The position numbers and the translations under genes are program-made. Positions 25,448 to 43,886 of a stretch of 64,000 bases of DNA are shown one piece after another. The stretch spans positions 10,704-74,703 of the forward strand of contig JBDRFZ010000030.1 of assembly GCA_043818395.1 (NCBI GenBank), given 5' to 3'. Position 1 is the first letter of the stretch. Every line of letters starts with the position of its first letter. The stretch comes from Patescibacteria group bacterium (GTDB lineage Bacteria > Patescibacteriota > Patescibacteriia > 2-12-FULL-60-25). The notes under the pieces are model-generated. The model was not told the DNA's origin, ran no database searches, and saw nothing but the letters and a program-made list of their open reading frames with translations.

Positions 25448-27134
25448 ACCGACACTTAAATACACCATGTCCCTAAATATTTTGGGACCTCTGGGGACCC
25501 TCCACGCTAAAGCATCATGTTAACCATTACACCCGGCTGAGCACAGGACCCTCCAGAGACAGGGAGTCGTCGCTTGGCCAAGAGCCAGGTTTTTTTGTCA
25601 AAAAAAGAGGTAGATGATGATGAGGATCTTAAATGGATTTTCATCAGCGTCTGTCTCACCTGACCCGCACCGAATGTACAGGGGAGTAGCAGACCGGACC
25701 TCGACAATAAAATTGTTACGATGATGATAGAAAGTCATACGTACAAGGCATAAGAACCATATTCGCGATCAACAAGAGTTCCGATCGCGAATGCAATTGA
25801 TAGTAAAGTACACCTTAAAAAAAAATTAAACGAACCGTCCGGTTTTACCCCGCGATTTCCTCATTCGAATCGTGGTTCCGGATGGTCGAAGCACGAAAGG
25901 GCGTACGGTGGATGGCTAGGCAGTAAGAAGCTGATGAAGGACGTGGCAGCCTGCGAAAAGTCTCGGGGAGGTGGCAAGCAACCTGTGATCCGGGAATGTC
26001 CGAATGGGGCAACCCAAGTCGATGAAGTCGACTTACCCGTAACTGAATACATAGGTTATGTGGAAGGCACCTGGGGAAGTGAAACATCTCAGTACCCAGA
26101 GGAAAAGAAAAAAAGGAAATTCCAGCCCTAATTTCTGGTCGAGTCTCCGATCTTTGATCGGATGTGCTCGCAGAAATTAGAGCTGGATAATATTCCGTGA
26201 GTAGTGGCGAACGAAAGCGGATCAGTCTAAATCGTTTATGTGAGCTTTTACACCGAGTTGGACGCAAGTTTGACCGCGGGTAGGAGTGAAGGGCTTGGGC
26301 CGTCGCATATTCGAAGTTGTGGGCGGAAGCGTCGATTCCCCAAGGGATCGGCGCGTAATCGGAAAAAGATAATCGAATTCGCTGGAAAGCGGAACCAAAG
26401 ACGGTGATAGTCCGGTAGGTGAAATTTTTTTCCATGCGCGTGTTTCCGCACCAAAGTACTATGGGGCTCGAGAAACCCTGTAGGAAGCAGCCGCGACGAT
26501 GCGGCAAGACTAAATACTTCTTCTGACCGATAGTGAACAAGTACAGTGATGGAAAGCTGAAAAGCAGCCCGGGAGGGCGATGAAATAGTATCTGAAACCG
26601 TACGCTTACAAGGAGGTGGAGCCGAGCTTTGCTCGGTCACACCGTTCCTATTGAAGAATGAGCCGACGAGTGAGCTCTACGTTGCTTTGGGTTAAGTTCT
26701 TGCGGGAACGGAGCCATAGTGAAAGCGAGCCTTAATAGGGCGTTTTTGTAGCGTAGACTCGACCCGAAACCCGGCGATCTAGCCATGACCAGGATGAAGT
26801 CCCGTTAGTTCGGGATGGAGGTCCGAACCCACGAGCCGTGCAACACTCGGGGATGAGTTGTGGCTAGCGGAGAAATTCCAATCGAGCTGGGTGATAGCTG
26901 GTTCTCCCTGAAATAGATTTTGGTCTAGCGTTGATTAATAGCGTTGCGGGGGTAGAGCACTGAATGGGGGGCGGGGCGCAAGCTTACGTCTCCTAACCAA
27001 ACTCCGAATACCGTAACGTGTTCCCAACAGTAAGACGATGGGGGCTAAGCTCCATCCGTCAAAAGGGAAACAGCCCTTGATCGCAGACTAAGGTCCCTAA
27101 TTATGTACTAAGTGTGAAAGGTGGTGGGTCGGCT

Positions 27135-27172
<38 letters not shown>

Positions 27173-28028
27173 TAAAGAAAGCGTAACAGCTCACTGGTCA
27201 AGCTGACCTGCACCGAAAACTTACCGGGGCTCAAGTACATAACCGAAGTCGCGAATGTTTTCCGGTTTTTAACCGGAGGGCGTGGTAAGGGAGCATTCGT
27301 AACTGCGCTGAAGCGAAAGGCGTGAGCCATCGTGGAGCGTTGCGAAGAGAGAATGTCGGCATAAGTAGCAAAAAGACAGGTTAAAATCCTGTCCACCGTA
27401 AACCCAAGGTTTCCAGGGCAACGAGAATCGTCCCTGGGTTAGCCGGTCCTAAGGCCAGGCCGAAAGGCGTAACCGATGGATAGCAGGTGAATATTCCTGC
27501 GCTGCCTATAGGTTTCAATGGAGTGACGTGTTCTTGCATTTTTCGAGAATCCCGGAATGATTCTTCGGGCACGAAGGGGCGTGGTATAGGCAAATCCGTA
27601 CCGCATAAACCTCGTTGTGTACGCTAGTCTGCCGCGAGGCGGGCAAGGAAAGAGAATGGGGCACCAAGAAAACCTTCTAGAGTTAACCTGTAGGCATCCG
27701 TACCGTAAACCGACACAGGTGGGTGGGCATAAGTGTGCCAAGGTGTACGAGAGAACCCGTGTGTAGGAACTCGGCAATACAACGGCCGTAACTTCGGGAT
27801 AAGGCCTGCCCAGCTCAGCTGGGCTACAACAAAAGACGCAAACCGACTGTTTACCAAAAACACAGCTCCCTGCTAAACCGTAAGGTGATGTATAGGGAGT
27901 GATGCCTGGCCAGTGTCAGAACGTTAAGAGGAGGGGTCATACCGCAAGGTGGCAGCCCTGAATCCAAGCGCTGATGAACGCCGGCGATAACTATAATCGT
28001 CCTAAGGTAGCGAAATTCCTTGTCGGGT

Positions 28029-28787
28029 GAACAAAGTGTTCCACAAGAAGTGGTCGGACCCTGTAAAAATTACAGGATTAACACTCGCCCGAATCCTGCC
28101 GCGAGGCGGGATAAGCAAACTGACTCATAACGGTGAATCCCACATTCCGACGGACATCGGAACGGGAAATACCGTGGGAACTCTGTATAATACAAAATAT
28201 TATGAAGAGACCCGTAACGACTGACCCGAAAGGGGAGAGCCGATGGACATCGGCTAACACGTCAGCTCTTGTAAGAAAAAAACAATCCAGGGAGACGGCA
28301 TCTTATATAACAGGATTCGTAGATGGCGAAGGAAGTTTCTTGGTTTCGTTTAATCGGCGATCTGGGCTCAAGACGGGCATCGAAGTCCGTCCGAGTTTCA
28401 GTCTAAGCCAACATAAACGCAATCTAAGTATCCTTCAGTCAATAAAAAATTTTTTCAGATGCGGAGGCATTCGTTTTGATCGGCATGATCAGACTTATAA
28501 ATACGAGGTCAGAAGCCTCGGTGATTTATGGAATAAGATCATACCGCATTTCAAGACGATTCCTCTTAAGACATCAAAAGCAAAGGATTTTGAACTTTTC
28601 AAAGAGGTCTGTTCACTCATGCGAGCGAACAGGCATCGTTCAAAAGCCGGTCTTGAAAAAATATTGCGAATTGCCTATTCAATGAATAATATAGGCGCCA
28701 GAAAATATAAGTTGTCAGATCTCCTAAAGATCGTTACAAGATGAAAGTATAGTCTGAACTCTGATGAAAATCAGAGATAACAAATGG
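28029..28787 (+). mobile_element. 23S intervening sequence 1 (intron-like, about 760 nt) carrying a LAGLIDADG ORF
   Basis: The conserved exon sequence CTTGTCGGGT stops at 28028 and resumes as AGTTCCGACCCGCACGAATGG at about 28788. By recalled E. coli numbering this is roughly position 1930. Junctions are accurate to about 2 nt. Confidence 0.75.
28202..28744 (+). CDS. single-motif LAGLIDADG homing endonuclease
   Basis: YITGFVDGEGSFLVSF motif. About 180 aa from MKRPVTTD, although the listed ORF allows an earlier start at 28133. Lies inside the 23S insertion. Confidence 0.85.
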   Translation: MKRPVTTDPKGESRWTSANTSALVRKKQSRETASYITGFVDGEGSFLVSFNRRSGLKTGIEVRPSFSLSQHKRNLSILQSIKNFFRCGGIRFDRHDQTYKYEVRSLGDLWNKIIPHFKTIPLKTSKAKDFELFKEVCSLMRANRHRSKAGLEKILRIAYSMNNIGARKYKLSDLLKIVTR

Positions 28788-29303
28788 AGTTCCGACCCGC
28801 ACGAATGGCATAACGAGTTTGCGACTGTCTCCACATGGGACTCGGTGAAATTGCAAGTGGGGTGAAGATGCCCTGTACGCGTAGTCAGACGAAAAGACCC
28901 CGTGAAGCTTTACTACAACTTGATATTGGGTCGCGGCTTTTCATGTTCAGAATAGGTGGGAGCCTTCGGGCAACAGTGAGATACCACCCTTGAACTGACG
29001 CGATTCTCGATCCCTATCCGTGAATCCGGATGGGGAGACAGTATCTGGTGGGTAGTTTAACTGGGGCGGTTGCCTCCTAAAAAGTAACGGAGGCGTTCAC
29101 AAAGGTCAGCTAGGCGCGGATGGAAATCGCGCTGATTCCGCAATGGGATAAGCTGGCTTAACTGCAAGACCAACAAGTCGAGCAGATGCGAAAGCAGGAC
29201 ATAGTGATCCGACCGTACGATATCGGACGGCGGAAGCTCAACGGATAAAAGCTACTCCGGGGATAACAGGCTGATCGCGCCCAAGCGTCCACAGCGACGG
29301 CGC

Positions 29304-29344
<41 letters not shown>

Positions 29345-29375
29345 TAGAAGCTCCCAAGGGTTTGGCTGTTCGCCA

Positions 29376-29419
<44 letters not shown>

Positions 29420-30186
29420 AAAGATCGTGCTGTCTATAAATTCGACTATATGCTGGAAACTCTGGTTTGACTTCCAATTAGGAGTTGGAGTCTAAAGAAT
29501 CTCATGCTACAGGTTATAATAAAAAAATTATGACACGTAAAAAAGCATTGAGTGCAGACAATCAGCAGGGAAGATTACATCATCGTCTTGAACCATGGTA
29601 TGTCAGTGGATTTATTGACGGCGAAGGCAGTTTTCATATCGCGATTTATCAAGATCAAATAATGAAAACTGGCTGGAAGGTTATTCCAGAATTTCATGTC
29701 TCGCAAAGAGTTTCGAGCCGGTGCGTCCTTGACGCACTTGTAAGATTCTTTAAATGCGGTTATGTGAAAATGAATCACCGATTGAATCCGAAAGATGTTA
29801 CCTATGTATATGTAGTAAGAGATCGAAAAGATTTAGCGACAAAAATCATGCCTTTTTTCCGCCGGTATAAGTTACAAACAGAGAAAAAAGAAGATTTTAA
29901 AAAGTTTTCTCAGATTATCGAGTTGATGTTAAATGAGCGTCATCGAACGTCTGTCGGACTAAAGCAGATCATAAAGATCGCATATTCTATGAATGGTTCC
30001 GGCCGTTATCGAAAACGACCAAAAAAGACGATTTTATAAAACCCTCAGAGACTATATGTCGAAAGCCGATATGCATCGGTTAAGATATAGTCCGAACTGC
30101 ATGGCGACATGCAGAGTCCGACGGAAACGTCGGATCGCCACGGAGCGAAATCAGATTATTGATGTGGTTTGCGAAGTAACAATGTG
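29420..30186 (+). mobile_element. 23S intervening sequence 2 (intron-like, 767 nt) carrying a LAGLIDADG ORF
   Basis: The exon GTCGTGAGACAGT ends at 29419 and resumes as TCGGTCTCCTGTCTAC at 30187. This lies within the peptidyl-transferase-centre strand, near E. coli position 2600 by recalled numbering. Confidence 0.8.
29530..30039 (+). CDS. single-motif LAGLIDADG homing endonuclease
   Basis: YVSGFIDGEGSFHIAI motif. About 169 aa from MTRKKALS. Lies inside the second 23S insertion. Confidence 0.85.
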   Translation: MTRKKALSADNQQGRLHHRLEPWYVSGFIDGEGSFHIAIYQDQIMKTGWKVIPEFHVSQRVSSRCVLDALVRFFKCGYVKMNHRLNPKDVTYVYVVRDRKDLATKIMPFFRRYKLQTEKKEDFKKFSQIIELMLNERHRTSVGLKQIIKIAYSMNGSGRYRKRPKKTIL

Positions 30187-30664
30187 TCGGTCTCCTGTCT
30201 ACTACGCGCGTGGAATATTGAGAGGGCAAATCTCTAGTACGAGAGGACCGAGATTTACGAACCTCTAGTGCACCAGCTGTCCCACCAGGGGCACCGTTGG
30301 GTAGCTACGTTCGGCGCGGATAAACGCTGAAAGCATATAAGCGTGAAGCCGTCCTCAAGATTAATATTCATTATGAGAGCCCTCCGAGACGAGGAGGTTG
30401 ATAGGCCGTATGTGTAAGACCTGCAAGGGTTTTAGCAGAGCGGTACTAATAGCTCCATGCTTCGACCATCCGGGATTACGATATCCAAAATCCGTAAAAT
30501 GATTTTGCGTATCACAATCCGGATATGGTTAGAAAAATTTTAAACGTGTACTTACATCAAGGTATGCCTTGTACGTACGACTTTCGATCATCAAAATGTG
30601 AAGCTTTTAACTTGCAGGTTACAGGCCTTATCCTTCGGCGATTATTCGTGATTTTTCATGGATA

Positions 30665-30785
30665 TCCGCCGGTGGCTTAAGCGGCAGTGTCACACCTGTT
30701 CCCTTTCCGAACACAGAAGTTAAGCCTGCTAGCAGCGATGGTACTTGGACCCAACCCGGTCCTGGAAGAGTAGCCCGTCGCCGGA
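30665..30785 (+). rRNA. rrf: 5S rRNA
   Basis: CCGAACACAGAAGTTAAGC and GATGGTACTTGG...CCTGGAAGAGTAG blocks. The terminal helix is TCCGCCGG pairing with TCGCCGGA. Confidence 0.9.
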
Positions 30786-30795
30786 CTAAACAGAT

Positions 30796-30917: not shown

Positions 30918-31781
30918 TCACGGCTTTTCCGTATCTTCTGTTTCAAGTGTTGGGAAACGAAGTGTGAATGATGAACCCGAGCCGGGTTTTGAGATTACGG
31001 AGATTCGACCTCCTGCACATTCGACCAGGTTTTTAACAAAAGCTAGTCCAAGTCCATGACCATGTTCTTTGGTTGTGAAATAAGCATCGAAAATTTGAGG
31101 AAGATTTTCTGGCGTGATACCGCATCCGCTGTCAGAAATTAAGATTTCGATGAAACGCTGTGCATTTTCATATCTGCTGGATTTTGTGTCAATTTTCAGA
31201 CTGCCCTGATAGTTCATTGCCCAGAGGGCATTGTTTATCAGATTTTGTATGATGCGTGCGAACTGCTCTGGATCGATCTTTATATATACCGAGCTCTCTA
31301 TTGTAAGCTGCAGATCGATATCATGACCCGTGATACAGCTCATGGCAGTTGTTATCAGTATCTCGGAAATATCTATCCAAGTACTATGTTCTCCGATGGG
31401 TTTGCGCGCAAGTCGGTATAATTCAGTAGTTAATTCTTTGATTTTATCGCTAGCTCTCTCACATGTACGACGGCATCGTTCCCTATCTTCACTTTCGTTC
31501 AAAATATTTAACGGCATCAGCGCGTTATTAATATCATGCGCTATGCCCATAACCCTGGCCATTCTTTCTCGTAGTTCCGTTAGGATATTCGGTGGACATG
31601 TATCAGGGGTCACGACAACCGGGAATTTATTCTCCGGGACCGTAAGGTTTCCTGACTCAGGCATGGGTTTTGGCCTGATGCCGCTTAATGGTTTTAGCGT
31701 GCCGTCGCTTCGGGTTTGGCTGATAGGTCCGGTTACGTATTTTTTGGACATCTCCCTACCCCTCAATTCTTCAGGGTTCAT
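30918..31781 (-). CDS. soluble sensor histidine kinase (orphan, no adjacent response regulator)
   Basis: H-box IAHDINNAL, N-box NLINNALWAM, G1 DSGCGI and G2 GHGLGLAFV. No transmembrane segments. Confidence 0.8.
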   Translation of the reverse strand: MNPEELRGREMSKKYVTGPISQTRSDGTLKPLSGIRPKPMPESGNLTVPENKFPVVVTPDTCPPNILTELRERMARVMGIAHDINNALMPLNILNESEDRERCRRTCERASDKIKELTTELYRLARKPIGEHSTWIDISEILITTAMSCITGHDIDLQLTIESSVYIKIDPEQFARIIQNLINNALWAMNYQGSLKIDTKSSRYENAQRFIEILISDSGCGITPENLPQIFDAYFTTKEHGHGLGLAFVKNLVECAGGRISVISKPGSGSSFTLRFPTLETEDTEKP

Positions 31782-31984
31782 TTTTTAAGGTACAAGATTT
31801 CTATATGATAGCTTAGCGTTATTTTTAGGTCGAGTGGTTAAGTTGTTGAATATATCGTTTTTATCAAGTTTAGGTTATAAGCGATTTTTTTAGTCTTTAC
31901 ATACACATACATCAAAATATTAATAATTTTTATCTAATTTTAGCTTAATAGCTTAAATTTAGCTTAAAAATGTATATGTTACAC

Positions 31985-32013
31985 TTGACAAAAATTGAAA
32001 AGCATGCTATAGT
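31985..32013 (+). promoter_or_regulatory. near-consensus promoter pointing into the ORF-free left end of the GC-rich island
   Basis: TTGACA (31985-31990), a 17-nt spacer, then TATAGT (32008-32013). Confidence 0.5.
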
Positions 32014-32019
32014 GTTTGC

Positions 32020-32182
32020 GTAAAAATAAAGAAGGGTTGTAAAGGCAGTCTAGGCACCTTACAAATAAACTCAAAGGCTTGAAGGAGAGAGCAAGTCCGC
32101 GAATCCAATTTTATACACCAAGGGGTGATGGATTCGGGCGCTTTTTCCTAAAAGCTACCGAGTTCCATCACCCTTTTTGGTT
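32020..32182 (+). ncRNA. candidate ~160-nt terminated leader or sRNA
   Basis: Starts just downstream of the promoter. Hairpins TTGTAAAGG/CCTTACAA and GGCTTG/CAAGTCC are followed by a long terminator hairpin (32122-32132 pairing with 32164-32174, then TTTTT). There is no ORF. Confidence 0.35.
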
Positions 32183-32184
32183 GT

Positions 32185-32900
32185 CAGCTGGAACTTGAAA
32201 GGCAGACCCTACATTCTGCAAAACGGGCTTCGGCCCAAGCGCGGATACTCGAGGTACATAAAAAGCGGCTAGGGCAATAGTCAACAAAGTTTCGTTCGCT
32301 ACTCGCGAACACCGCCCAAAATACCGCTTCTCAATTCTGCCTTTCATATTCCAGCTCGCAAGAGCTTGAACCTTATAACTACCGCGATACTGATTGTTTT
32401 GGAGAATGAAATAGGAGAGAGATCCTGCTCCAAGATAATGAGTCGCATCTCTATTTGGTCCCGAACTAAAACGGGACAGTTGATTCGGAGTAATACCAAA
32501 ACCACCCGCCGAGAGAAGGGTGGCACGGCAAACAACCGGAGATCGACCTCGAAGTCCCTTAGAGAGACTTCGTAGTAACGAGTGCGTCCTGCCCTCTCCG
32601 ACCGTCGGAGGGGACCGGGACAGTCGCTACTACCATGGTTATGTAATAGACGACGGTCAGGACGCGACGAACTTTGACAACAAAATTCTGCTCAAGCGGA
32701 CGAACACCAATAACAATCATCTTGGGTTTCGTTTCGTCCTCTTAAGCAGAGCGCGGTTCTACTGAAGGAGTAACGCACTGGTGCGAAACTCTGGATGATA
32801 AACGGCGCTTGAAGAACGGAGGCCGGTGGCTAGATAAACCGCCGGTTAGAAAAATGGCAAAGTAGAACAAAAAAAATATCAAAATTAATTCGTTCGCGTC
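32185..32900 (+). ncRNA. candidate large structured RNA region (class unknown)
   Basis: No ORF of 60 aa or more has a ribosome-binding site. A 21-position helix with 19 pairs joins 32186-32206 to 32336-32356. A UUCG tetraloop hairpin lies at 32225-32236 and a GCAA tetraloop hairpin at 32353-32366. At least six further clean hairpins were noted, including 32458-32477, 32502-32523, 32550-32572 and 32584-32591/32658-32665. Confidence 0.35.
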
Positions 32901-33424
32901 AATTTTTTCCAAACAGTATTCAATAATAAGTTCGAGGCTCGCAATGAGCCAGAACAGAAAGGAGATCGAGAAAATAGCGGCACAGTTGAGTGCCGATCTC
33001 GCCGATCCGGAGCAGTTCCGGACGGTCATGGAGCTTGCGACCAACCGCTAGCTCCAAACCTCTCCCGCTGTTACGAGGTACAGCGGGAACAAAGAGGAAC
33101 CAACCTCAAAACGCACTCGGAGAGAAGCGCACACTTCTCATCCGATCCGAATTTTGGAAGCCCATAATTACTAAACTTGGGACTAAATCCAGACTTCAGA
33201 TCGGAGCAATCCGAAAATTACTCATGGATTCTCATTTGGCATCATAATCAAAGCGGCGGTAAAAAAGCCACCCACTGAGTTATGGAACCAAACGAGAAGC
33301 TATGAAGCCGGCACGGATAAATTCTGCACGTTGCAGGATCACGTGCGCGGTTGACGCGACTCAAACACGCACAAAACAAATATCGTGGAACGCCACGAGA
33401 ATACGTTTTGTGCAAAGGAGGCAG

Positions 33425-33610
33425 ATGGCCCATTGGCCAGCTTCCGGCCCCCACGGCCAGTGCCCGTGGTGTGGCGCGTCTGAAGACATCGGGGACTGCT
33501 GTCCCGATGCCCAGGCCGCCACCCGCGAGCCCGAGGCCGAGGGTTACCTCTGTGAGGGCGATGAAAACCGCTCTCACGGAGCCGACTCCACCCATCGGGT
33601 GGAGAATTAA
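33425..33610 (+). CDS. possible small Cys-rich protein (61 aa)
   Basis: AAAGGAGG lies 3 nt upstream of the ATG. The peptide MAHWPASGPHGQCPWCGAS...DCCPD has a zinc-ribbon-like Cys pattern. It could also be non-coding GC-rich sequence. Confidence 0.3.
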   Translation: MAHWPASGPHGQCPWCGASEDIGDCCPDAQAATREPEAEGYLCEGDENRSHGADSTHRVEN

Positions 33611-33826
33611 CCCCGGTGGGGAAACAAACGCACCGGCGTGAACCGGGACAGCTCGAACAGGGCGTCATGTGACGTCGTATCGAGTTGCGGGAGATGAGCG
33701 CCGCTTGAGGAGGGAGTGCAAGCGATCTTGCACGAGACTCCATGGCTCAAGCGCCGGAAATGACTGCCGGCGCCTAATCGCGGATTAGTCACCGCGTTTC
33801 GTACATTTCCCGGGTCTATCACCTGG

Positions 33827-34038
33827 GTTTGAGCAAAATCCTTGCTCTCTAAAACGACAGGTCGCGGCGCTTGATCACATGATCTAACATCGCGGGTTTC
33901 ACAGACCATGAATCACTCTTGAGTAATCAAGATCAATTCAAAACTGTGAGCTTGAGACGCCGTCTCCGTTTAGTAGAACGTAAAACTACAGCTACTCGCA
34001 TGCTCTCTTACGCTACTGCACAAGGCAATAGAGAGCAT
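33827..34038 (+). repeat. non-coding module A (paralog of module B)
   Basis: Shares these blocks with 35374-35603: GTTTGAGC(A/G)AAATCC, ATCGCGGGT(T/A)TCACAGACCATG, CAAAACTGTGAG(C/A)TTGAGACGC(C/A)GTCTCCGT and GAACGTAAA. It also shares a terminal hairpin whose loop contains CTGCACAAG. Confidence 0.75.
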
Positions 34039-34106
34039 CCGATCCTATTTCCGCACACTCCCATAAAGAAATCATTCTGGGTTCGTGGTTCGGAAATGAG
34101 ATCGGA

Positions 34107-34676
34107 TTATGGTCGGGCGTTTTCTTCCAATGCCGTTATTCGTTCTTCGTGGCGAAGACTGGCGTTCCGAAGGGAGGAAATCTCGATATCAACAGTCCGA
34201 TGATGCGTGGCGAACCAGTCAACATGCGTCAGAATCTCCTGCTTGAATTCTTGTAGATCATCCTTAGTCGCGAATCCAAGCAGATCATCCTTGGTGGCGA
34301 AACGCTCATCAAGGCGCCGGAATTGATCGTCTGTATGGGAAGATAGGTCGTGAACAGCCTCGAGTATGTCTTGAATTGAGGTTGTGTGTTCCTGGGAAAC
34401 AGATTTTAACCCTGCAACGTCCGTCTTCAGCTCGGTTACATCTGATTTTAACCCTGCAACGTCCGTCTTCAGCTCGGTTACATCCTTTGCAAGGATATTA
34501 ACCGTAGATTTGAGATCGGTCATGTCCTTCGTAAGACCGGCTACGCCTTTAGAAAGACCGGCCATGTCTTTAGAAAGGCCTTGGACTACATCTAAAATCT
34601 TTTCGTTGGCTGAATCAGCGGTCATATGGAGAGCATTAGTGAATGAAGAATAGCATCCTCTAAATACCGCTGCCAT
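34107..34676 (-). CDS. coiled-coil repeat protein (14-aa tandem repeats, ATKDDL motifs)
   Basis: 189-aa ORF. The repeat DVTELKTDVAGLKS occurs twice and FATKDDL occurs twice. The architecture parallels 45083..45478. The start (34676 or 34625) is uncertain. Confidence 0.55.
   Translation of the reverse strand: MAAVFRGCYSSFTNALHMTADSANEKILDVVQGLSKDMAGLSKGVAGLTKDMTDLKSTVNILAKDVTELKTDVAGLKSDVTELKTDVAGLKSVSQEHTTSIQDILEAVHDLSSHTDDQFRRLDERFATKDDLLGFATKDDLQEFKQEILTHVDWFATHHRTVDIEISSLRNASLRHEERITALEENARP
34402..34485. repeat. near-perfect 2 x 42-bp tandem duplication inside the coiled-coil gene
   Basis: GATTTTAACCCTGCAACGTCCGTCTTCAGCTCGGTTACATC(T/C) at 34402-34443 and 34444-34485. The two copies differ only at the last base. 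Confidence 0.9.
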
Positions 34677-34995
34677 AAATCGAGGGAGAGGTCAAGATGT
34701 GGATATTCGGAAACAGCGTTTTCTCGGTAGAAATCGTGATTCGAAAAAGTTCGAAGCACGATTTCTCTCGAGGAGAGAGAAAATTTTGATCGGATGATCT
34801 GAAGCGACGTCTCATACGTGAGCGAATCAAATCAGGCTCGGATCGAACGGCCGCGCGTAACGGTCGATAGCTCCATCGAGAGGTGAAGAAGAAACGTAAG
34901 CGCGGCTCCGACGCATTCGGGCAAGCGAACTCGGCGGATATTGAAACCCGCCTTTCAGAATGGAGCCCGCGGCTAGATAAACCGCGGGAGAGAAC

Positions 34996-35337
34996 ATGGC
35001 CGGCACCTACACCGTCACCGCCACCTCCGTCACCGCCACCTCCACCCCCGCCACCCTGCTCCGGTTGAGCTTCGGCTCGCCGGCGCAGAACGACGTCATC
35101 GTCCGCGACGCCGTCGTCGCCCTCGAGGCCCACAAGCTCGAGGGGGGGAAGCTGGTCCTACTGAATGGGCCCGCTTCCCTGCCAGTGGCTTGCGCCCTCG
35201 CGCACGGCCTCGGGCACATCTTCGGCGCCATCGGGGTCTTCGACCCCAAGATGGCGGGGTACGTAGTCGCGGTCAGTCATGACCCGACGTTCCCCGTGGG
35301 GATGACCATCCCAGCGTCGGAGGTGAAAGAGGGCTGA
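34996..35337 (+). CDS. Csx3-like protein (CARF-related cyclic-oligoadenylate ring nuclease family, Crn3)
   Basis: The segment GKLVLLNGPASLPVACALAHGLGHIFGAIGVFDPKMAGYVVAVSHDP matches my recollection of A. fulgidus Csx3 (G.VISGRGPIWLHCFLAHKYHH...AVYDPRLGAVVVQSH), including the His/Asp positions. Not verified by search. Confidence 0.5.
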   Translation: MAGTYTVTATSVTATSTPATLLRLSFGSPAQNDVIVRDAVVALEAHKLEGGKLVLLNGPASLPVACALAHGLGHIFGAIGVFDPKMAGYVVAVSHDPTFPVGMTIPASEVKEG

Positions 35338-35373
35338 TCACCCTCTCGAAACATATCTCGGATTGATCTCCGA

Positions 35374-35603
35374 GTTTGAGCGAAATCCCAGCTCTAGAAA
35401 ATGATGGGTCGTGATACGAGATCGAGAGATTAAGTATCGCGGGTATCACAGACCATGGAATTAGAAAAAAGTATCGTGTACTGAGTACCGGGTACTATCT
35501 CTCTAAACTCCAAAACTGTGAGATTGAGACGCAGTCTCCGTCCGTGGAACGTAAATTCACTAACACTCGAAACCCACCTAAGCCCTGCACAAGCTGCGGT
35601 GGG
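35374..35603 (+). repeat. non-coding module B (paralog of module A; its terminal hairpin is a paralog of 45023-45068)
   Basis: See module A for the shared blocks. The hairpin ACCCACC/GGTGGGT carries a loop containing CTGCACAAG. Confidence 0.75.
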
Positions 35604-35800
35604 TTCCTCGAACTGAATGTTTAAAAAAATGTCGTCTCGACTAAAACGGAGAGACCTTCAATTTGAAGATCCATTCGACTCGGCCACGGTTCTATTTTTT
35701 GGATAGGCCTTCGCTCAGGATGACAATTTTTAAACGCTCGATTCGAGGAAATGGTTCCTCCAAAACTTTCCCGCAGAACGCGGGAGAAAGGAGACGGCTA

Positions 35801-36385
35801 GTGAAAGTCGTACTCTGTGGACCCCCGCGTTCGGGGAAGTCCTGCCTAAGGCAGGGCTTAAAGGACGCGGTACGGAGCATTCCTGGGGCTCCGTACCCCT
35901 ACGTCATCACCGCGTGCCCCGACGGGGAGGGCTCGTGGTTCCAGGAGACGGTGAACTCCGACCCCGAGGCTGCTGCGAAGTTCAAGGCGGCCTACAAGAG
36001 CAAGTTCACCCCCGAGTTCGTGCGCAGGGTCGCGGACTCGGTGAAAAACTGCACCCTGTCTCTTACGCTGGTGGATATAGGCGGTATCCCCAGCGCAGAG
36101 AATAAAGAAATTTGCGCCGCCGCCACGCACGCCGTTCTTCTCGCAGGGGATACCTCGCGGTTCCCCGAGTGGCGTGAGTTTTGCGAGAAACTCGGAATCT
36201 CTGTCCTGGCCGAGATTGCGAGTAACTACCAAGGCCAGGAAGACTCCCCGCCGTATCTCGACGGCGACGAGGGAGTCTTCGTCGGTTCGGTTCACCACCT
36301 CGAACGCGGTGAACCGGTCGCAGAGCGCCCGACTGTCAAGGCGCTCGCCGAGATTCTGGTCGCGTTGGTCGGCGATCAGGAGTAG
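35801..36385 (+). CDS. P-loop NTPase (kinase/ATPase-like), function unknown
   Basis: AAAGGAGA SD and a GTG start. Walker A (VVLCGPPRSGKSC), an ACPDGEGSW segment and a Walker-B-like LSLTLVDIGG. Confidence 0.6.
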   Translation: MKVVLCGPPRSGKSCLRQGLKDAVRSIPGAPYPYVITACPDGEGSWFQETVNSDPEAAAKFKAAYKSKFTPEFVRRVADSVKNCTLSLTLVDIGGIPSAENKEICAAATHAVLLAGDTSRFPEWREFCEKLGISVLAEIASNYQGQEDSPPYLDGDEGVFVGSVHHLERGEPVAERPTVKALAEILVALVGDQE

Positions 36386-36405
36386 TTAGACCAACCGGGC
36401 GAAGA

Positions 36406-36737
36406 GATCCCTCGACTTCGCTCGGGACGACAGAGGGCAGGAGATATAGCGACTCCTCTTTTAAACAATTCGCTTATCACTCGAAGCTCGGTTGCACATC
36501 CGGGCTCTTCGAATGGAAGTTTGATTGAATTCGTCATTCCCGGGAAAATGGGAATCCAGGTAGCTTGCTGATGGATCCCCGCTTTCGCGAGGATGACGTA
36601 GATCGAAAATCCGTTCGAGGAAGAGTTCCTTGTGTTTTTCTTTCCGCACAGGTCCGGAACAGATGCCTATTTTGACGGATGAGTCAGATGACTCTCTCCG
36701 TCAGGCTACCTGTTATCTTAGGGGGAAGTTCCGGATC
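36406..36737. repeat. left copy of a ~300-bp imperfect direct repeat (E and D modules)
   Basis: E1 (36406-36459) and D1 (36653-36737) are colinear with E2 (43904-43956) and D2 (44123-44207). Shared strings include ACAGAGGGCAGGAGATA, ACTCTCTCCG and GGAAGTTCCGGATC. Confidence 0.6.
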
Positions 36738-36759
36738 GGTGCGGGAATAAAAAACAAAA

Positions 36760-38605: not shown

Positions 38606-39820
38606 GTGAGTGATCTCAAAACGGCCGTTGCCCTGGCGGCCAAGATCCAGGGCATTTCAAAGGACGTCCTCGCGCGCCACATTGGGCGCGGGGACGTGGT
38701 GCGAGCCACCTGGCTCGCACTCGTGAGCGGCCGTCCGGCCTTCTTCCTCGGGCCTCCCGGGGTGGACAAGACCGGGACGGTTCAGGATTTGGCGCGTAGG
38801 GTCGACGGAGCCGTCTTTTTTGACGCGCTCATGCCGACCCTCGTCTCGGTCGAGCAGCTCCTCGTGGAGAGTACCTCCATCGAGGAGTCGTCGACGGCGG
38901 ATGGCGGAAAGTCCATCCGTACGCGCGACACGCTCGGCCGCGCTGCCGGCGCGCATCTCCTCTTCGCCGATGAGATCTGGAAAGCAGAACCCCGTGTTCT
39001 GCAGACGGTTCTCGACCTGGCGAAAGGGGACGGCGTGCGCCACGAGGGAACGCAGGTCAAGACGCCTCTCAAGGCGTTCTTGGCCGCGTCCAACGAGCTC
39101 CCTGACTCCGAGGGAAACCTCGGCGCGGTTTGGTCTCGTATGACCATCCGCGTCGTAGTCAAGGAGCTCGATCGCAAAGGCAAAACCGCGTTGGTCAAGG
39201 CGCGGTTGGCCAAAGTACGTGGCATGTCTGCCAAGGCCAGCGGGAGCGACAAGCTCACGCTCGCCGAAGTGGACGATCTGCGCGCTGCGCGCAGCCGGAT
39301 CGAAATCTCGGATGAAATCGTGGAGATCGTGCTCGACATCGTCGAGCAGCTCCGCGATGAAAACTCCGGAACGTTCGACTGGGCCTGGGCCGACGACCGG
39401 CGTTTCGGTCGCGTGTTCGACGTCATGCAGGCTAACGCCTTGCTCGATGGCCGAACGCGGGTCGGAAAACAGGACCTCGCGGTTCTGGAGTGGCTACTCT
39501 GGGATTCACCCGAGCAGATTCCGACGGTCAAGGCCAAGATCGCGCCGTTTTGCCGCACTCCGCTCATGGATGCACAGGAGATGCTCGACGCACTCCTGGC
39601 TCCCGGAGGGGTTGTGGCAGATGTGCTCGGCGGCAACCGGACCAAAGGCGTGGCGGCTCTGACGCAGTGTGAAAGCTGCGCCGGTGAGCTTGCTACGCTC
39701 AAGGCCAGCGCTGACGCGAGTATGGCGCAGGGCATCGACCAGCTGGTCCGGCAGCTGGAGTCCGTGAAAGCGGACGTGATCGCAGTGATCACCGGAACGC
39801 GGACGTCCGCCGCGAAATAG
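38606..39820 (+). CDS. MoxR-like AAA+ ATPase
   Basis: Walker A (FFLGPPGVDKTG), Walker B (LLFADEIWKAEP) and the following VLQTVLDL...G segment are typical of MoxR/AAA_5 ATPases. GTG start. Confidence 0.75.
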   Translation: MSDLKTAVALAAKIQGISKDVLARHIGRGDVVRATWLALVSGRPAFFLGPPGVDKTGTVQDLARRVDGAVFFDALMPTLVSVEQLLVESTSIEESSTADGGKSIRTRDTLGRAAGAHLLFADEIWKAEPRVLQTVLDLAKGDGVRHEGTQVKTPLKAFLAASNELPDSEGNLGAVWSRMTIRVVVKELDRKGKTALVKARLAKVRGMSAKASGSDKLTLAEVDDLRAARSRIEISDEIVEIVLDIVEQLRDENSGTFDWAWADDRRFGRVFDVMQANALLDGRTRVGKQDLAVLEWLLWDSPEQIPTVKAKIAPFCRTPLMDAQEMLDALLAPGGVVADVLGGNRTKGVAALTQCESCAGELATLKASADASMAQGIDQLVRQLESVKADVIAVITGTRTSAAK

Positions 39821-39861
39821 CGGACCCGTAGGGGCGGGGTCTCCCCGCCCAAGGAGGATAC

Positions 39862-41652
39862 GTGGAAGAAACTCGAAAGGGCGGACCCGCGTGTCCGCCC
39901 ATCGCGCGACAGGAGCTGCAAAAGCTCCTGGTGACGGACGCGGACGCCTTTACGGCGCTCCGCTACCTCCGTCACCGCGAGAACGTTCCCTCGCTCCCGG
40001 ATCTGGAAGAGCAGGGCCGCAAGGCTCTGCCCGGGATTGAGGGTAGTCTCTGCGACCTCTACCACACGCTTTGGGCGCCAGAGCCCAGCGTGAAGGAAGA
40101 GGTTGCGTCGGACCGCCGTTACTGGCGTGAGTTGCTCGGTGAGGCTGTGAAATCCACGGCATACGCCGAGCTGCATGCCAGTACGCAGCTCTCGGAGCTA
40201 AAGTCCGTACTGGGCACCGTGGCCATGGGTGAAACCGTGGTCAAGACGGTGTCCAAGGAGGACGCTGAGAAGCTGCAAGAGACGGCAACTGCGCAACGTG
40301 AGGCCGACGATGCGCAGCAAGAAGCAGACCAGGCGCAAGCCGCGGCAGACATGGCGCAAGCCATGTTCGAATCCGCGAATGCGCAAGCTGGTCAGGGCCA
40401 GGGGAGCGGAGGATCTCAAAAAGATCCTTCGACTACGCTTCGCTCCGCTCAGGACGACAGTTCTGGCGGACAGCTGCAGCCCGGCCAGGGCAAACCCGGA
40501 AAAAGATCCCTCGACTCCGCTCGGGACGACAATTCGTCATCGACCGGTGGGCGAGGGACACTGACCCCGGAGCAAGCCAAGGCGTTGGCTGACGCACTGG
40601 CTGATGAGTGGCTCAAAGCGCAGGAATGCGCCGAGGCCGCGAATCAGTTAGCCGCCGAAGCCAAAGCCAAGGCCGAAGCCCTGGCTAATGAACTTCTGGG
40701 CCAACCCGGCAAGCAGCAAGCGGAGCAAAAGCTTCGCGAACTGGCGCGCGCCGGGCAAGCGGCAATCAAGGCCGCACAAGCCAAGGTGGAGGAGGTTTCC
40801 GAAACCATCGAGGCTTGGGGACTTGAGGAAGCCGAGCTCACGCGCCAGAGCATTCCCGAAGCATTGGGTTTGCTCGAGCGCATGAAGCGAAGTGCGGCAC
40901 TCAAGAAGTTCGCGGCTCTGCTCGGTCGCTTGCGCAAGATCGCGGCTCGCAAAGCGCGATCCAAAACGCAGGCCAGAGGCGTACGCATTGCTATCCCGGA
41001 AACGGGACGCGACATGCGCCGCGCCTACCCGAGCGAGCTGGTGGCTCTCGCACATCCGGCGACCCGCACCCAAGCGCTCAAGCGCTGGGCACGCGGCGAG
41101 CTGCGATTGCGCGGCGAGCAAGCTAAGCAAAAGCTTGGCCATGGCCCGGTCATCGTCTGCGAAGACGCGTCCGGGTCCATGGATGGAGCCAAGCAACAGT
41201 GGGCCAAGGGAGTAGTTCTTTCCCTGGCGCACTTTGCAAAACTCCAGAAGCGGTCGTTCGGTTGGATCATGTTCGATTCCCGAGTTCATCGGGCGGAAGA
41301 ATATCCTGCCGGGCGCATCGCGGCCAAGCAGATGCTTGATATCGTGGAGTCCCACGCCGGTGGCGGCACGGACTTCGAACGCCCACTGCGCAAAGCGCTG
41401 GAAATGGTGAAACAAACCGGCCTCAAAAAGGCCGACATCTGCTTCATCACCGACGGCGAATGCGCAGTGAGCGAAACTTTCCTGCGGGAATTTAAAGCGG
41501 CTAAACGCGAACTTGAAATCAATGTCTTCACGATTCTGTGCGACGTTGGTTCGAGCGCGGACAGCACCGTCAGCGAATTCTCTGACAGGATCGAAACGGT
41601 TTCCAGCTTCTCGGCAGAAGAAGCGGAGACCAAGGTGTTTGGTTCTTTGTAG
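39862..41652 (+). CDS. vWA-domain protein with an acidic, low-complexity linker (CoxE/CobT-like architecture)
   Basis: AAGGAGGA SD and a GTG start. The C-terminal vWA domain has the MIDAS motif (VCEDASGSMDG) plus GGGTDFERPL and FITDGE. The central linker is Ala/Gln/Asp-rich. Confidence 0.8.
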   Translation: MEETRKGGPACPPIARQELQKLLVTDADAFTALRYLRHRENVPSLPDLEEQGRKALPGIEGSLCDLYHTLWAPEPSVKEEVASDRRYWRELLGEAVKSTAYAELHASTQLSELKSVLGTVAMGETVVKTVSKEDAEKLQETATAQREADDAQQEADQAQAAADMAQAMFESANAQAGQGQGSGGSQKDPSTTLRSAQDDSSGGQLQPGQGKPGKRSLDSARDDNSSSTGGRGTLTPEQAKALADALADEWLKAQECAEAANQLAAEAKAKAEALANELLGQPGKQQAEQKLRELARAGQAAIKAAQAKVEEVSETIEAWGLEEAELTRQSIPEALGLLERMKRSAALKKFAALLGRLRKIAARKARSKTQARGVRIAIPETGRDMRRAYPSELVALAHPATRTQALKRWARGELRLRGEQAKQKLGHGPVIVCEDASGSMDGAKQQWAKGVVLSLAHFAKLQKRSFGWIMFDSRVHRAEEYPAGRIAAKQMLDIVESHAGGGTDFERPLRKALEMVKQTGLKKADICFITDGECAVSETFLREFKAAKRELEINVFTILCDVGSSADSTVSEFSDRIETVSSFSAEEAETKVFGSL

Positions 41653-41822
41653 GGGCACAGCGTGCTGTGCCCCTACGCTCGGACGACGTTTGCCGCATCG
41701 TCTTTTGCTCTCGGGAAGCGCAGCACTTGCGCTTCCCCTGATTTTTTCCGTCTGGAGCATGGTGCTCGAGATGGGAAATTTCAGTTTTTCGGCCGTGCAT
41801 GGCCAAGTAAAAGGAGGCCGCC

Positions 41823-43886
41823 ATGGCCGAGAAAAGAATTGAAACAGTCCTGGCCAAGGCCGGGAATAACCCGGCCGAAGCGGTGGCCACCATTGGCCGC
41901 CGCAGCATCTGTTTCCTGCCGCGCGGCGTTACGCCCGGGCAGGAGGTCCGTGTCGAGCTCGTTGAGCTCGGCAAAAATGACAGCCGCGGAAATCCAATGT
42001 TCCGCGGCGTGGCCGCTCCCACGGAGACCGTGGTCGAGTGGCGTGAACTCGACGGCAGGTTCGAGAGCGTTGAGTTCTCGGTCGACTGGAAGCTCCAGAA
42101 GACCGAGAAACGCGTGCTCGAGAGCCGCGTGCCAGTCAAGCGCGACGGCGTACCGAGTCGCAACGCGAGCTTCAAGGTCGACTGGGCTCAGTCGTTCACC
42201 GACGCCCGGATCAAGGTCGAAATCAAGACTGAGATCCCGGAGCTCGAGGAACAACTCGGCTCTAACGGGCCGGCGATGATCGAGAAGACTCGCCGTGACG
42301 GCGGCACCACGGTCGAAGAGTTTGCGCTCAAGACCCTGGAGCCCTGCCGCTCGGGCTACGTCGACTCCAATGACTGGCACGGTAAGCGTCTGCGTGCCAG
42401 TTATGAGGGAGAGCCGAAGCTGTTCGTTAGCTTCATACTTTCCTACGGCGAGAAGTCGTTCGAGACCAACTCGCAAGAGTGGTCTTCACTGCCGACGTGG
42501 CTCAAGGAGCAACTCTCGGCCCCGTATCCGCTCTGCGGATGCGGGCAGTCTCGTTTCGATTCTGCGGGGCATCATGCCTGCGCAGACTGCGAGACGATCG
42601 AGCGCGTTCTCCCGGCCGAAAAGCGGCAGGAGATCGCGGCGCTTGCCGAGAAGCTCCTTGCCGTGGAGCCTCTGCCTCGCGAAGCCGGCGAGATCGTGCT
42701 CAAGTCAACGCTTGGGCATGTGACGTCGGAATACACGCGCGACAGTATTCTCCGCCAGTGGTCCGGGTTCGCCTGGTACTACTTTGCGGGTGATGGCGTG
42801 TACGGGAGCAAGTTCCCGCGATCCGCGCTCCAGGTTCTGCGTTTCATTGCGCAGGCCGAAGGCGATGGATTGTTGGAGCTCGCGGCCTGGCTCTGCGGTC
42901 GCGACAAGGCGGACGACTGCGAGCGCTACGGAGATTACTTCGTGGCGACGCAAGTCAAAGGCGAGAGCCGGTCGCGCACGCTCCAGAGCAACCGCGACGC
43001 CACGGCCGCAATTCGCCTGCGCGGCTCTGAAGCCGACCGTTTGGCTGCGCTCGAAGCGTATGCCGAAATGGTCGAGGTTTGGGGTAAGGATTCGAGCCAG
43101 GCGGAATCGCTTAACACGATTCTGCAGGGTGAGAGTCAGGACTATAGCCAGGCCATGGCCAAGGCGCAGGACGCGCTGCGACTCCATGAAGCACGGACGC
43201 GCGCCATCCAAGCCGGAGAAATTTGGCAGGATGTCCGTGTGAATTGGGAAGAAAGTAGTAATGGCCGAGCCCGTGGCAAAGGCTGGGCCATTGCGCCGGA
43301 TGGAGAGTTCTACCCGGAATTAGATGGCGATGCTCACGCCTTCGGTGACCTGCCAACCAACACGCTTGTGCTTTCGCACAGCACCTCGGATTATGGCTAC
43401 CGCTATACCGAATGCTGGACGGTTCACAAGCTGCCCAAGCAGGTCACGGGTGAGCAGCACGTGGCGCTTACAGGACTCCTTCAAGGGGAACGGCAGTTTT
43501 TCTGCGGTGATCGGGCGACGTGGAATCTAACCCGCGAGGGGACTGTTCGCATCGCCACCGCTTACCACAGAGACTTCGTCGGGACCGATGCCGAAGCGCA
43601 TCGGGCCATGCGTGGCACCTTGCCCATGGATTTGTCCAGATGGTTCCTGTATGAAGTCATGCAGGACGAACATGGATATGATCTGCAGGAAGCGATGCTG
43701 GAAGTCTGGCATCGCGAGGTGCGCGACGCGCATGGCATGCGCCTGCGGTATCGCCCGGCGGCTGCTGCAAAGCAGTTCAAGAAGGTCGCTCCCGCCAACG
43801 TCAAGCCCGCAAGCGCTGAGCAGGTCACAACTTCGCTCGGCGCTCTCAAGGCCAAGTTCGGCGGCCGTCGCGAAAAGCGCCGCTAA
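41823..43886 (+). CDS. large hypothetical protein (687 aa), third member of the MoxR-vWA cassette
   Basis: AAGGAGG SD. Long GC-rich ORF with an internal CGCG...C..C cysteine cluster. No domain recognised by eye. Confidence 0.65.
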   Translation: MAEKRIETVLAKAGNNPAEAVATIGRRSICFLPRGVTPGQEVRVELVELGKNDSRGNPMFRGVAAPTETVVEWRELDGRFESVEFSVDWKLQKTEKRVLESRVPVKRDGVPSRNASFKVDWAQSFTDARIKVEIKTEIPELEEQLGSNGPAMIEKTRRDGGTTVEEFALKTLEPCRSGYVDSNDWHGKRLRASYEGEPKLFVSFILSYGEKSFETNSQEWSSLPTWLKEQLSAPYPLCGCGQSRFDSAGHHACADCETIERVLPAEKRQEIAALAEKLLAVEPLPREAGEIVLKSTLGHVTSEYTRDSILRQWSGFAWYYFAGDGVYGSKFPRSALQVLRFIAQAEGDGLLELAAWLCGRDKADDCERYGDYFVATQVKGESRSRTLQSNRDATAAIRLRGSEADRLAALEAYAEMVEVWGKDSSQAESLNTILQGESQDYSQAMAKAQDALRLHEARTRAIQAGEIWQDVRVNWEESSNGRARGKGWAIAPDGEFYPELDGDAHAFGDLPTNTLVLSHSTSDYGYRYTECWTVHKLPKQVTGEQHVALTGLLQGERQFFCGDRATWNLTREGTVRIATAYHRDFVGTDAEAHRAMRGTLPMDLSRWFLYEVMQDEHGYDLQEAMLEVWHREVRDAHGMRLRYRPAAAAKQFKKVAPANVKPASAEQVTTSLGALKAKFGGRREKRR

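Follow-up and report, generated by a model that had tools for sequence, protein, structure and literature searches.

A conserved structured RNA domain in the putative composite 5′ leader of a Csx3/P-loop gene module from Patescibacteria

Within a 64,000-nt stretch of DNA from a Patescibacteria group bacterium (GenBank assembly GCA_043818395.1, contig JBDRFZ010000030.1, positions 10,704 to 74,703 of the forward strand; hereafter the window, in whose own numbering all coordinates are given), the roughly 2 kb between positions 32185 and 34100 had been singled out by a first-pass annotation as nearly devoid of credible open reading frames (ORFs) and dense in nested hairpins, and had been taken for either one or more large ornate RNAs or a graveyard of miniature elements. 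Our preferred reading, held with moderate rather than high confidence, is that this stretch is the central portion of a long 5′ leader RNA of composite make-up, read from the plus strand and belonging to a horizontally spread module of the candidate phyla radiation (CPR) that encodes a Csx3 and a P-loop protein, with cis-regulation by attenuation combined with leader structure. On comparative sequence evidence, about a third of the stretch is a conserved, apparently undescribed structured leader RNA, while the remainder combines a hairpin that varies between lineages, duplicates of cassette signals, an ORF that is either small or truncated, and GC-rich filler without conservation. The stretch is bounded on the left by a near-consensus promoter and a leader ending in a terminator (31985-32180), and on the right by the Csx3 gene (from 34996) and the P-loop NTPase gene (from 35801).

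The evidence centres on block B (32368-32700, plus strand), a conserved structured RNA domain of ~330 nt that carries the second GGAGAGAG box of the window at 32414. Related loci, 80 in number and designated here by L and a numeral, were retrieved from genome contigs via the alignment of the P-loop protein and then scanned by nhmmer, and co-linear, same-strand homologues were found upstream of Csx3/P-loop genes in L048, L023, L005, L015, L012, L046 and others. Block B itself has homologues in L048 (3e-85), L023 (6e-57), L005, L012 and L046. The RNAalifold consensus of three full-length sequences contains 82 pairs, with 90.6% of cells paired and changes on both sides in 27 pairs, where column shuffles gave 12.7 +/- 2.6 (0 of 500) and slid-partner controls 1-6 double-change pairs; helix 7 (32502-32523) and helix 9 (32550-32572) contribute four compensatory changes each. 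Homology and covariation, which the first-pass annotation had named among its checks, are thus both present: homologues in CPR loci, and compensatory changes above shuffles. Several of the stems it had listed belong to this fold, those at 32502-32523, 32550-32572 and 32594-32611 corresponding to helices 7, 9 and 12/13. The stem at 32458-32477 covaries with L048 by eye but lies outside the consensus fold of B, and the long-range pair 32584-32591/32658-32665 is not conserved in homologues, the conserved fold pairing 32584-32591 locally instead.

At the heart of block B lies a core hairpin (32524-32653, plus strand) that comprises the P0 stem, a P1 of near-invariant sequence (GUAGUAACGAGUGCG ... 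CAGUCGCUACUAC) interrupted by a conserved internal loop, and a P2 that varies; the two sides of the internal loop, CGAGUGCG / CAGUCG, are themselves near-invariant. A covariance model of this core matches 13 distinct loci, every match lying on the plus strand and upstream of the P-loop gene. Covariation is seen in 16 of 23 pairs, with 60 double-change cells against 18 +/- 3.7 in shuffled alignments and 6-21 in slid controls, counts that are somewhat inflated because the alignment was fitted to the plus-strand model. The stems of the conserved hairpins vary in length and spacing and accommodate inserted sub-hairpins. In the simplest loci (L025, L046, L024, L014) the core stands 37-200 nt before the start codon, so that the 3-kb leader of the window is an expanded version. 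Taken together, these features mark B as a candidate RNA family of 13 members, described by covariance models R1 and R2 and not represented in Rfam.

The non-coding, hairpin-rich character of the wider stretch is equally apparent. In 150-nt sliding windows compared with shuffles, fold z-scores lie between -2 and -7.4 across all of 32050-34150 but are ~0 in the neighbouring coding gene (34150-34650), so that the hairpin density first noticed by inspection is real, and the individual hairpins, stems and ORFs reported there could all be located. The spread of GC content over codon positions is 0.06-0.12 in the stretch against 0.2-0.45 in the island genes downstream, and a six-frame translation of 32001-34200 with stops masked gave zero Pfam matches, both in keeping with the claim of almost no credible ORFs. 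Indels in the block B alignments are not multiples of three, and the plus strand is A-rich, like rRNA.

These observations bear directly on the idea of a hidden protein gene, frameshifted or written in an unusual code, which might draw on two small ORFs: a Zn-ribbon ORF in the equivalent slot of L048, and a 35-aa ORF in the window (32944-33051, plus strand), 28 residues of which are 46% identical (E = 1e-4) to the C-terminus of a 75-aa ORF in L013. Because that 75-aa ORF has a strong Shine-Dalgarno sequence and lies just upstream of the P-loop gene, the 35-aa ORF is best taken as a small gene or the remnant of one; its proposed coding nature is supported by the partial homologue, but it could encode a small protein or be a truncated remnant. 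The 61-aa Cys-rich ORF (33425-33610), the other coding candidate of the first-pass annotation, is probably spurious, since its only homologue, in the near-identical copy L001, differs at 5 of 61 residues, one change turning a Cys to Trp; a 102-aa ORF (33302-33607) likewise has its sole database relative on L001. The masked six-frame Pfam search yielded nothing, codon-position GC carries no coding signal, and the indels of B ignore codon length. We consider a hidden gene highly unlikely.

Upstream of block B, the left boundary of the stretch has the organization of a putative regulatory region. Within an AT-rich flank, three TAGCTTAA-type direct repeats (31940-31970, plus strand; ~10-nt spacing) stand just upstream of the -35 hexamer as a possible operator or activator site, and GCT(T)AA-like repeats are retained ahead of the promoter in L001, L023 and L005. 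The near-consensus sigma-70 promoter (31985-32013, plus strand; TTGACA, 17 nt, TG-n-TATAGT) agrees with the consensus at 11 of 12 positions, and in six diverged homologues the -35 and extended -10 hexamers persist amid flanks that differ. Leader A (32020-32180, plus strand; fold z = -3.45), whose homologues (31985-32181) occur in L048, L023, L015 and L005 by nhmmer, contains a GGAGAGAG box hairpin (32076-32098) and an intrinsic terminator (32120-32176) followed by a U-run. The terminator stems of the window, L048, L023, L015 and L005 are wholly different in sequence, yet complementarity is retained and a U-run follows each.

The GGAGAGAG box is ~15-34-fold enriched in leaders, and on the plus strand of the 64-kb window only three occur, at the heads of A, B (32414) and E (34772). 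A promoter followed by a box was found by regular expression in 15 loci, to which L048 and L023, carrying AGAGAGAG, were joined by hand to give 17; in 10 of the 17 the order is box, pyrimidine tract and T-run, as against 4% of controls. Pairing of the box with a pyrimidine tract of the terminator, in its loop or 5′ arm, is marked by GC/GU exchanges across five sequences, but its position varies, some loci having the tract in the loop and others in the stem. Such alternative pairing would act as an anti-terminator. Promoter, leader, box, tract and a G+C-rich hairpin with U-run, placed ahead of the genes and conserved in homologues, constitute the anatomy of an attenuator and presumably serve as one.

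On this basis, the following sequence of events can be envisaged. Transcription would start at the promoter 31985-32013, and the ~160-nt leader would display the GGAGAGAG box, which may pair with the tract in or next to the terminator 32120-32180, the choice between box and tract deciding whether RNA polymerase reads through. The read-through RNA would carry the variable long hairpin, the ~330-nt domain B and the further hairpin modules C, D and E, and the genes would be reached behind hairpins covering all or part of their ribosome-binding sites. Block B and the repeated GGAGAGAG boxes may act as cis-acting control and stability elements, probably bound by the module's own factor, for which Csx3, a known RNA- and oligoadenylate-binding protein, is the obvious candidate. 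In this lineage the leader appears to have been stretched to ~3 kb by the duplicated cassette frame 32813-34035 and an antisense coiled-coil gene.

Several observations weigh against this proposal. The B core is limited to 13 of the 80 related loci that the scan yielded, none of them cyanobacterial, and only ~460 nt of 32185-34100 (blocks B and C) are conserved in other lineages, C in L048 alone; the largest part, ~950 nt, has no homologue detectable by nhmmer. The notion of a large ornate RNA thus holds insofar as B and C are conserved and covarying, but not as one RNA of ~2 kb. Since the terminator lies upstream of B, B would be made only by read-through, and the antisense gene at 34107-34676 breaks the putative transcript. 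The GGAGAGAG box is often shown in a small covarying hairpin, but that hairpin has no fixed register across all loci, so that a single fixed-register hairpin around the box, considered as a general feature, holds only partly. The B consensus folds alike on both strands (-50 vs -58 kcal/mol) with symmetric GU/AC counts, and the excess of 24 GU over 7 AC cells in the B core carries reduced weight because it comes from the alignment fitted to the plus-strand model.

An attempt to fix the strand by GU versus AC counts was accordingly abandoned, the counts being symmetric over the full B alignment, and because energies and counts are strand-symmetric the plus-strand assignment rests on context. That context, comprising promoter, terminator, ribosome-binding-site hairpins, gene orientation, plus-strand model matches and A-rich skew, favours the plus strand, as the first-pass annotation had supposed from its tetraloops, although the folding and base-pair counts of B do not distinguish the strands. 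We infer from such context the strand and extent of the RNA.

Alternatively, leader A, block B or both may be stand-alone, trans-acting non-coding RNAs that serve as partners, scaffolds or substrates of the Csx3/P-loop proteins in a small ribonucleoprotein module, with a logic akin to that of Y RNA and its partners Rsr/Ro and RtcB. The very strong promoter and own terminator of leader A would make an abundant ~160-nt RNA the default product, the near-invariant internal loop of the B core is of a kind that proteins recognise, and the recurrence of the GGAGAGAG box is reminiscent of multi-site protein-sponge RNAs; moreover, the distance from B to the gene ranges from 37 to 2300 nt, with the place of the RNA constant whichever gene comes first. 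However, no separate promoter was seen ahead of B by eye at the junctions of the window, L048 and L023 (the related loci being unscanned), B always lies on the gene strand and upstream, as a 5′ untranslated region would, hairpins covering ribosome-binding sites and conserved blocks abutting start codons indicate control in cis, and there is no evidence of processing sites. We therefore regard a trans-acting role as unlikely, although it is the chief rival of the cis-regulatory reading.

Between the terminator of leader A and block B, the window contains a lineage-specific long hairpin domain (32181-32366, plus strand), formed by the 21-bp helix of the first-pass annotation, with a UUCG hairpin inside (32225-32236) and a GCAA hairpin at its 3′ edge (32353-32366) that competes with the outer pairs of the long helix. 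The helix is present and extends further than first described, to 26-nt arms (32181-32206/32336-32361; arm sequence TTGTCAGCTGGAACTTGAAAGGCAGA) that are 85% complementary and pair once only in the 64-kb window, where 0.01 such pairs are expected by chance. For the 190-nt domain the folding energy is -68.7 kcal/mol (z = -5.5 vs dinucleotide shuffles), and the opposite strand is about as stable. In L048 and L023, 6-13 nt separate the terminator U-run from the start of B, compared with 186 nt (32181-32366) in the window, so that the domain is missing there at an otherwise conserved junction, as at empty sites. At the same site, long hairpins of unrelated sequence, 75-125 nt in size, are found in L005, L032, L019 and L012, those of L005 and L032 opening with UUGU and closing with GCAA, as in the window.

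The first-pass annotation had offered, as a second possibility, that this inverted repeat bounds a miniature inverted-repeat transposable element (MITE). The domain does share with MITEs a size of ~186 bp, 26-nt imperfect terminal inverted repeats and presence or absence between related loci. It differs from them in being single-copy in searchable data, in lacking a target-site duplication, none being visible at the flanks of 32181-32366, and in having a highly structured interior with a UUCG loop at a site filled elsewhere by unrelated hairpins. Extra copies of the inverted repeat, which would have spoken for mobility, were sought without success: there is none elsewhere in the window, none of the domain in 84 other related loci (1.26 Mb), and no match to the arms in IMG/VR, while a spurious ORF spanning the domain, compared with 1.84 billion representative proteins, gave only low-complexity matches to giant repeat proteins. 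Because it is single-copy in the data searched, shows no target-site duplication and is replaced in other lineages by unrelated long hairpins, 32181-32366 is more probably an expansion hairpin of the leader, variable between lineages, than a MITE.

The wider form of that idea is a graveyard, in which a MITE-like insertion at 32181-32366, decayed cassette junctions and dead genes would have accumulated in a recombining island and the hairpins would be functionless. Besides the terminal repeats and empty sites just described, this reading is favoured by the right-hand part of the stretch, where 32813-32866 and 33778-34035 duplicate signals that normally flank Csx3 and frame a Csx3-like slot. The first of these is a leftover cassette 5′ signal (plus strand), a hairpin that partly sequesters a Shine-Dalgarno sequence (loop CUAGAUAAA) and is followed by a 3-codon ORF, MAK*, the ribosome-binding site leading only to ATG-GCA-AAG-TAG. 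Its hairpin (32820-32848) copies that ahead of Csx3 (34957-34994) and differs from it by a single compensatory pair change and a single C-G to U-G replacement; a CUAGAUAAA-loop hairpin also precedes the Zn-ribbon ORF of L048. The second, D1 (33778-34035, plus strand), duplicates an element normally found after the Csx3 stop, matches 35329-35593 (1.5e-67, nhmmer) and ends in an ACUCG-hairpin module with a GCACA loop. The slot so framed, with its 3-codon and truncated ORFs, is today occupied by the 35-aa ORF together with block C and filler. As a separate observation, L048 has at ~8530-8845 a ~105-aa Zn-ribbon-like ORF (CxC ... CxxC) behind a CUAGAGAAA hairpin and ribosome-binding site; in the window this slot is empty.

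Block C (33095-33225, plus strand) matches L048 8902-9029 (7e-33, nhmmer), and in these two sequences five of its 32 predicted pairs show compensatory changes. Lineage-specific GC-rich filler (33226-33777, plus strand) follows, including the 61-aa ORF. By nhmmer, 32701-33080 and 33226-33777 have a homologue only in L001, save for the piece 33626-33705, which recurs in L048 at a different position, downstream of the P-loop gene. The filler, without homologue beyond near-identical strains yet variable between them, and the shuffled positions of 33626-33705 and of the ACUCG hairpin, suit the graveyard view, as does the different left-hand context of L001 described below. Decay of island leader copies, as originally suggested, accordingly holds to the letter for 32813-32866 and 33778-34035, but not for B and C, which covary across lineages. 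For the stretch as a whole a graveyard is improbable: it leaves B and C unexplained, conserved as they are across CPR lineages, covarying, and fixed in position and orientation; no second copy of the inverted repeat exists in any of the collections searched, and in other lineages the site is taken by long hairpins that are unrelated in sequence but similar in their closing pairs, while no target-site duplication is visible in the window.

Further conserved blocks accompany the two genes and complete the leader as we read it. Block E (34762-34995, plus strand) is the conserved 5′ untranslated region of Csx3, with homologues in L023 (8e-21) and L048 (nhmmer, 34784-34995); it bears the third GGAGAGAG box (34772) and a hairpin (34963-34990) that partly sequesters the Shine-Dalgarno sequence. 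A 157-aa minus-strand ORF (34660-35133) was rejected as spurious, because it overlaps both Csx3 and the conserved non-coding block E. D2 (35329-35605, plus strand), a structured spacer that is likewise conserved, separates Csx3 from the P-loop gene; block D has nhmmer homologues in L048, L023, L005 and L024, and its hairpins are largely conserved, with few compensatory changes (3 of 10 predicted pairs), while patterns for module D had no match in IMG/VR. In L048 the whole order of A, B, small Zn-ribbon ORF, C, E, Csx3, D and P-loop gene fits within 2.1 kb.

Evidence for recombination of this unit comes from L001 (JGI 3300014656, 2751 nt), which is 98% identical to window 31939-34484. Upstream of its promoter the context differs, with another copy of the module-D terminator, and because of this different left-hand context the unit evidently recombines between locations. 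From 32078 onwards L001 is identical to the window save for six substitutions within 33456-33511 (L001 1716-1771), whereas the promoter and first ~57 nt of the leader (window 31939-32077, L001 198-337) are only ~70% identical, both hexamers being retained. The break in identity at ~32077, from ~70% before to 100% after, was noted together with the greater similarity of the L001 5′ version to L048 and L005, and suggests allele swapping of the leader 5′ end. The six substitutions are packed into 56 nt amid ~2.4 kb of otherwise 100% identity, are not compensatory and have no template copy in the window; they could represent a recombination patch or local hypermutation. Hypermutation of the diversity-generating-retroelement type was considered and rejected, there being no template in the window and no reverse-transcriptase domain in the scanned window ORFs or the six-frame translation of 32001-34200.

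The mobility of the module also invites the suggestion that the hairpins act at the DNA level, as a single-strand origin, as recombination or attC-like sites, or as operators for mobile-element proteins. In its favour, the structures of the two strands are of about the same stability, and the module is clearly mobile, with a GC content unlike that of its hosts and proteins 69-81% identical among the closest listed homologues from several CPR lineages. Nevertheless, no integrase, relaxase or Rep gene adjoins the module in window ORF scans or PADLOC output, and no attC R''/R' core sites are visible; unlike operators, the stems vary in length, spacing and sub-hairpins, and the fixed order of promoter, terminator, B, ribosome-binding site and gene follows an RNA-level logic. 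A DNA-level function thus seems very improbable, and an integron attC in particular was dismissed for want of core sites and integrase.

Turning to the genes of the module, the Csx3 (Crn3-like) gene (34996-35337, plus strand) matches Pfam Cas_csx3 (1.9e-7) with a strong codon-position GC signal, and reaches 6.5e-5 against TIGR02579, below the cutoff of that model. The P-loop NTPase gene (35801-36385, plus strand) is recognised by PADLOC as the 'AAA' half of Csx3-AAA (1.9e-58); its protein is 100% identical to one from a Patescibacteria MAG and has 1053 homologues, the best 120 of the 1053 at 69-81% identity and mostly from CPR bacteria where the source is named. Its AlphaFold2 model has a pLDDT (predicted local distance difference test) of 89, the nearest folds being, weakly, SIMIBI GTPases/ATPases, a match too weak to provide a mechanistic lead, and the protein had no sequence relative in PDB and no NCBIfam match. 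Both genes have 56-69% GC irrespective of host GC (~42-45% in the window, L005 and L023); this host-independent composition, together with the 69-81% identity among the closest listed P-loop homologues of several CPR lineages, implies recent horizontal spread or unusual constraint. PADLOC finds only Csx3-AAA, which gives no sign of cas10/Cas7-type effector genes of a type III CRISPR-Cas locus, and a CRISPR array was ruled out, the window containing no regularly spaced repeats.

The module belongs to an island, in that the window has ~42% GC overall and climbs to 50-65% between ~32000 and 45065. Rightward, the gene order is antisense coiled-coil gene, Csx3, P-loop NTPase, HicAB, several small ORFs, MoxR, vWA protein and a 687-aa protein. 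The antisense coiled-coil gene (34107-34676, minus strand), with 42-nt tandem repeats, is an insertion splitting the leader in this lineage and is shared by L001. A second coiled-coil gene with 42-nt tandem repeats (45083-45478, minus strand) forms the right edge of the high-GC island at ~45065, each of the two standing directly after an ACUCG-hairpin (GCACA loop) terminator module; no tmRNA or tRNA attachment site was found at the island edge. At 38606-43886, MoxR (bpMoxR domain), the vWA protein and the 687-aa protein, which has no Pfam domain, make up a MoxR-vWA ternary-type conflict system that also accompanies the Csx3 and P-loop genes in L015 and L003.

Repeated non-coding elements occur in the same region. 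A ~370-nt trailer is present twice at 75-78% identity, once 3′ of the P-loop gene (36393-36759) and once 3′ of the 687-aa gene (43890-44229). A hairpin repeat GATCCCTCGACTYCGCTCGGGACGAC, similar to repetitive extragenic palindromes, is found at 36402, 40419, 40501, 43899 and 63028, with a variant near 45745; two copies are read in frame as part of the vWA gene, where they specify ...DPSTTLRSAQDD... and ...SLDSARDD.... Hairpins of the related VIPAKAG type occur at 36535-36600, and in L012 the P2 loop of the B core carries one as an insertion. To the left of the promoter, the divergent neighbour gene encodes a HATPase_c protein in the window and a TrmB-family regulator in L003 and L005. Farther left, the 23S rRNA gene (unit 25885-30786) exceeds the Rfam model length by ~660 nt and holds a LAGLIDADG ORF (28133-28744), a second LAGLIDADG ORF (29485-30039) separates the 23S 3′ end from the 5S gene (30668-30786), and a 31-nt inverted repeat (25722-25752/30563-30593) flanks the rRNA unit; the 16S gene is absent from the window, an arrangement typical of CPR rRNA loci.

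CPR (Patescibacteria) genomes are tiny and gene-dense, so that the retention of 0.6-3 kb of non-coding sequence is notable, and to our knowledge almost nothing is known of CPR gene regulation and non-coding RNAs. Equally, we know of no settled role for free-standing Csx3-"AAA" modules, even in cyanobacteria, and the leader offers a handle on their function. It is also conceivable, if decidedly speculative and on balance improbable, that leader A and block B are the RNA part of an unrecognised mobile CPR RNA-protein system, outside CRISPR, with a Csx3-fold protein and a SIMIBI-like P-loop NTPase, which might sense or buffer an oligoadenylate or RNA signal, or use the RNA as antitoxin or scaffold in a conflict or addiction module passed horizontally between ultrasmall episymbiotic bacteria. 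Should the RNA be simply a regulatory leader, it would be a modest addition to the catalogue of cis-regulatory RNAs; in either case, the stretch provides a worked example of how a hairpin-dense gene desert resolves into conserved RNA and cassette debris.

Searches of RNA and sequence databases place the leader apart from described families. Among all 4227 Rfam families, gathering-level matches in the window are confined to rRNA and tRNA, and at E <= 10 the region 31700-34300 gave three chance matches far below cutoffs. The models of GOLLD, ROOL, HEARO, OLE, raiA and Y RNA/YrlA found no match in the window leader, and the homologous leaders of L048 and L025 are likewise without an Rfam match, so that the membership in GOLLD, ROOL, HEARO/omega-RNA, OLE or raiA raised by the first-pass annotation is not borne out even at E <= 10. 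A group II intron was discarded, its only trace being group-II-D1D4-2 at 15 bits (gathering 36, E = 6), with no reverse-transcriptase domain in six frames. Positions 31980-34110 had no match to PLSDB plasmids or INPHARED phages (blastn, distant mode), and the pattern GTAAAGGCAG-N-GCACCTTACAAA occurred 0 times in genome contigs and, in metagenome contigs, only in that of L001. Exact-protein look-ups for four window ORFs returned no record, probably on account of differing start codons, and in the literature we found no description of this RNA, nor of an RNA linked to Csx3-AAA or to CPR.

Comparison with known systems nevertheless helps to situate the leader. With the ornate non-coding RNAs (GOLLD, ROOL, OLE, raiA, HEARO/omega RNA) it shares multi-helix covarying structure of several hundred nucleotides, non-coding character and occurrence in mobile or foreign DNA; it differs in failing their models, in having ~330 nt conserved rather than 2 kb, and in standing strictly 5′ of one gene pair, with no IscB/TnpB, phage-tail or tRNA context. 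The sponge RNAs CsrB and RsmZ likewise repeat a GGA-containing purine motif along a structured RNA, partly in hairpin loops, whereas here each leader has one to three boxes, which additionally pair with pyrimidine tracts, the motif is GGAGAGAG instead of A(N)GGA, and no CsrA homologue was seen, none having been looked for. In Rsr(Ro)-Y RNA-RtcB operons, with which the comparison was made through Rfam models, a structured non-coding RNA is again combined with RNA-acting or conflict proteins, and MoxR-vWA adjoins the module here, but the window has no Y RNA/YrlA model match and no Ro/TROVE or RtcB gene. Lastly, set beside attenuation leaders and riboswitch platforms (T-box, PyrR-type, protein-dependent), the leader is distinguished by the lack of an Rfam leader or riboswitch match and of an identified ligand or aptamer, by its length of 0.6-3 kb and by the position of its largest conserved domain, B, after the terminator; it shares with them a strong promoter, a structured leader and a covarying terminator stem, as well as a GGAGAGAG box complementary to a tract in or by the terminator, which would allow mutually exclusive folds.

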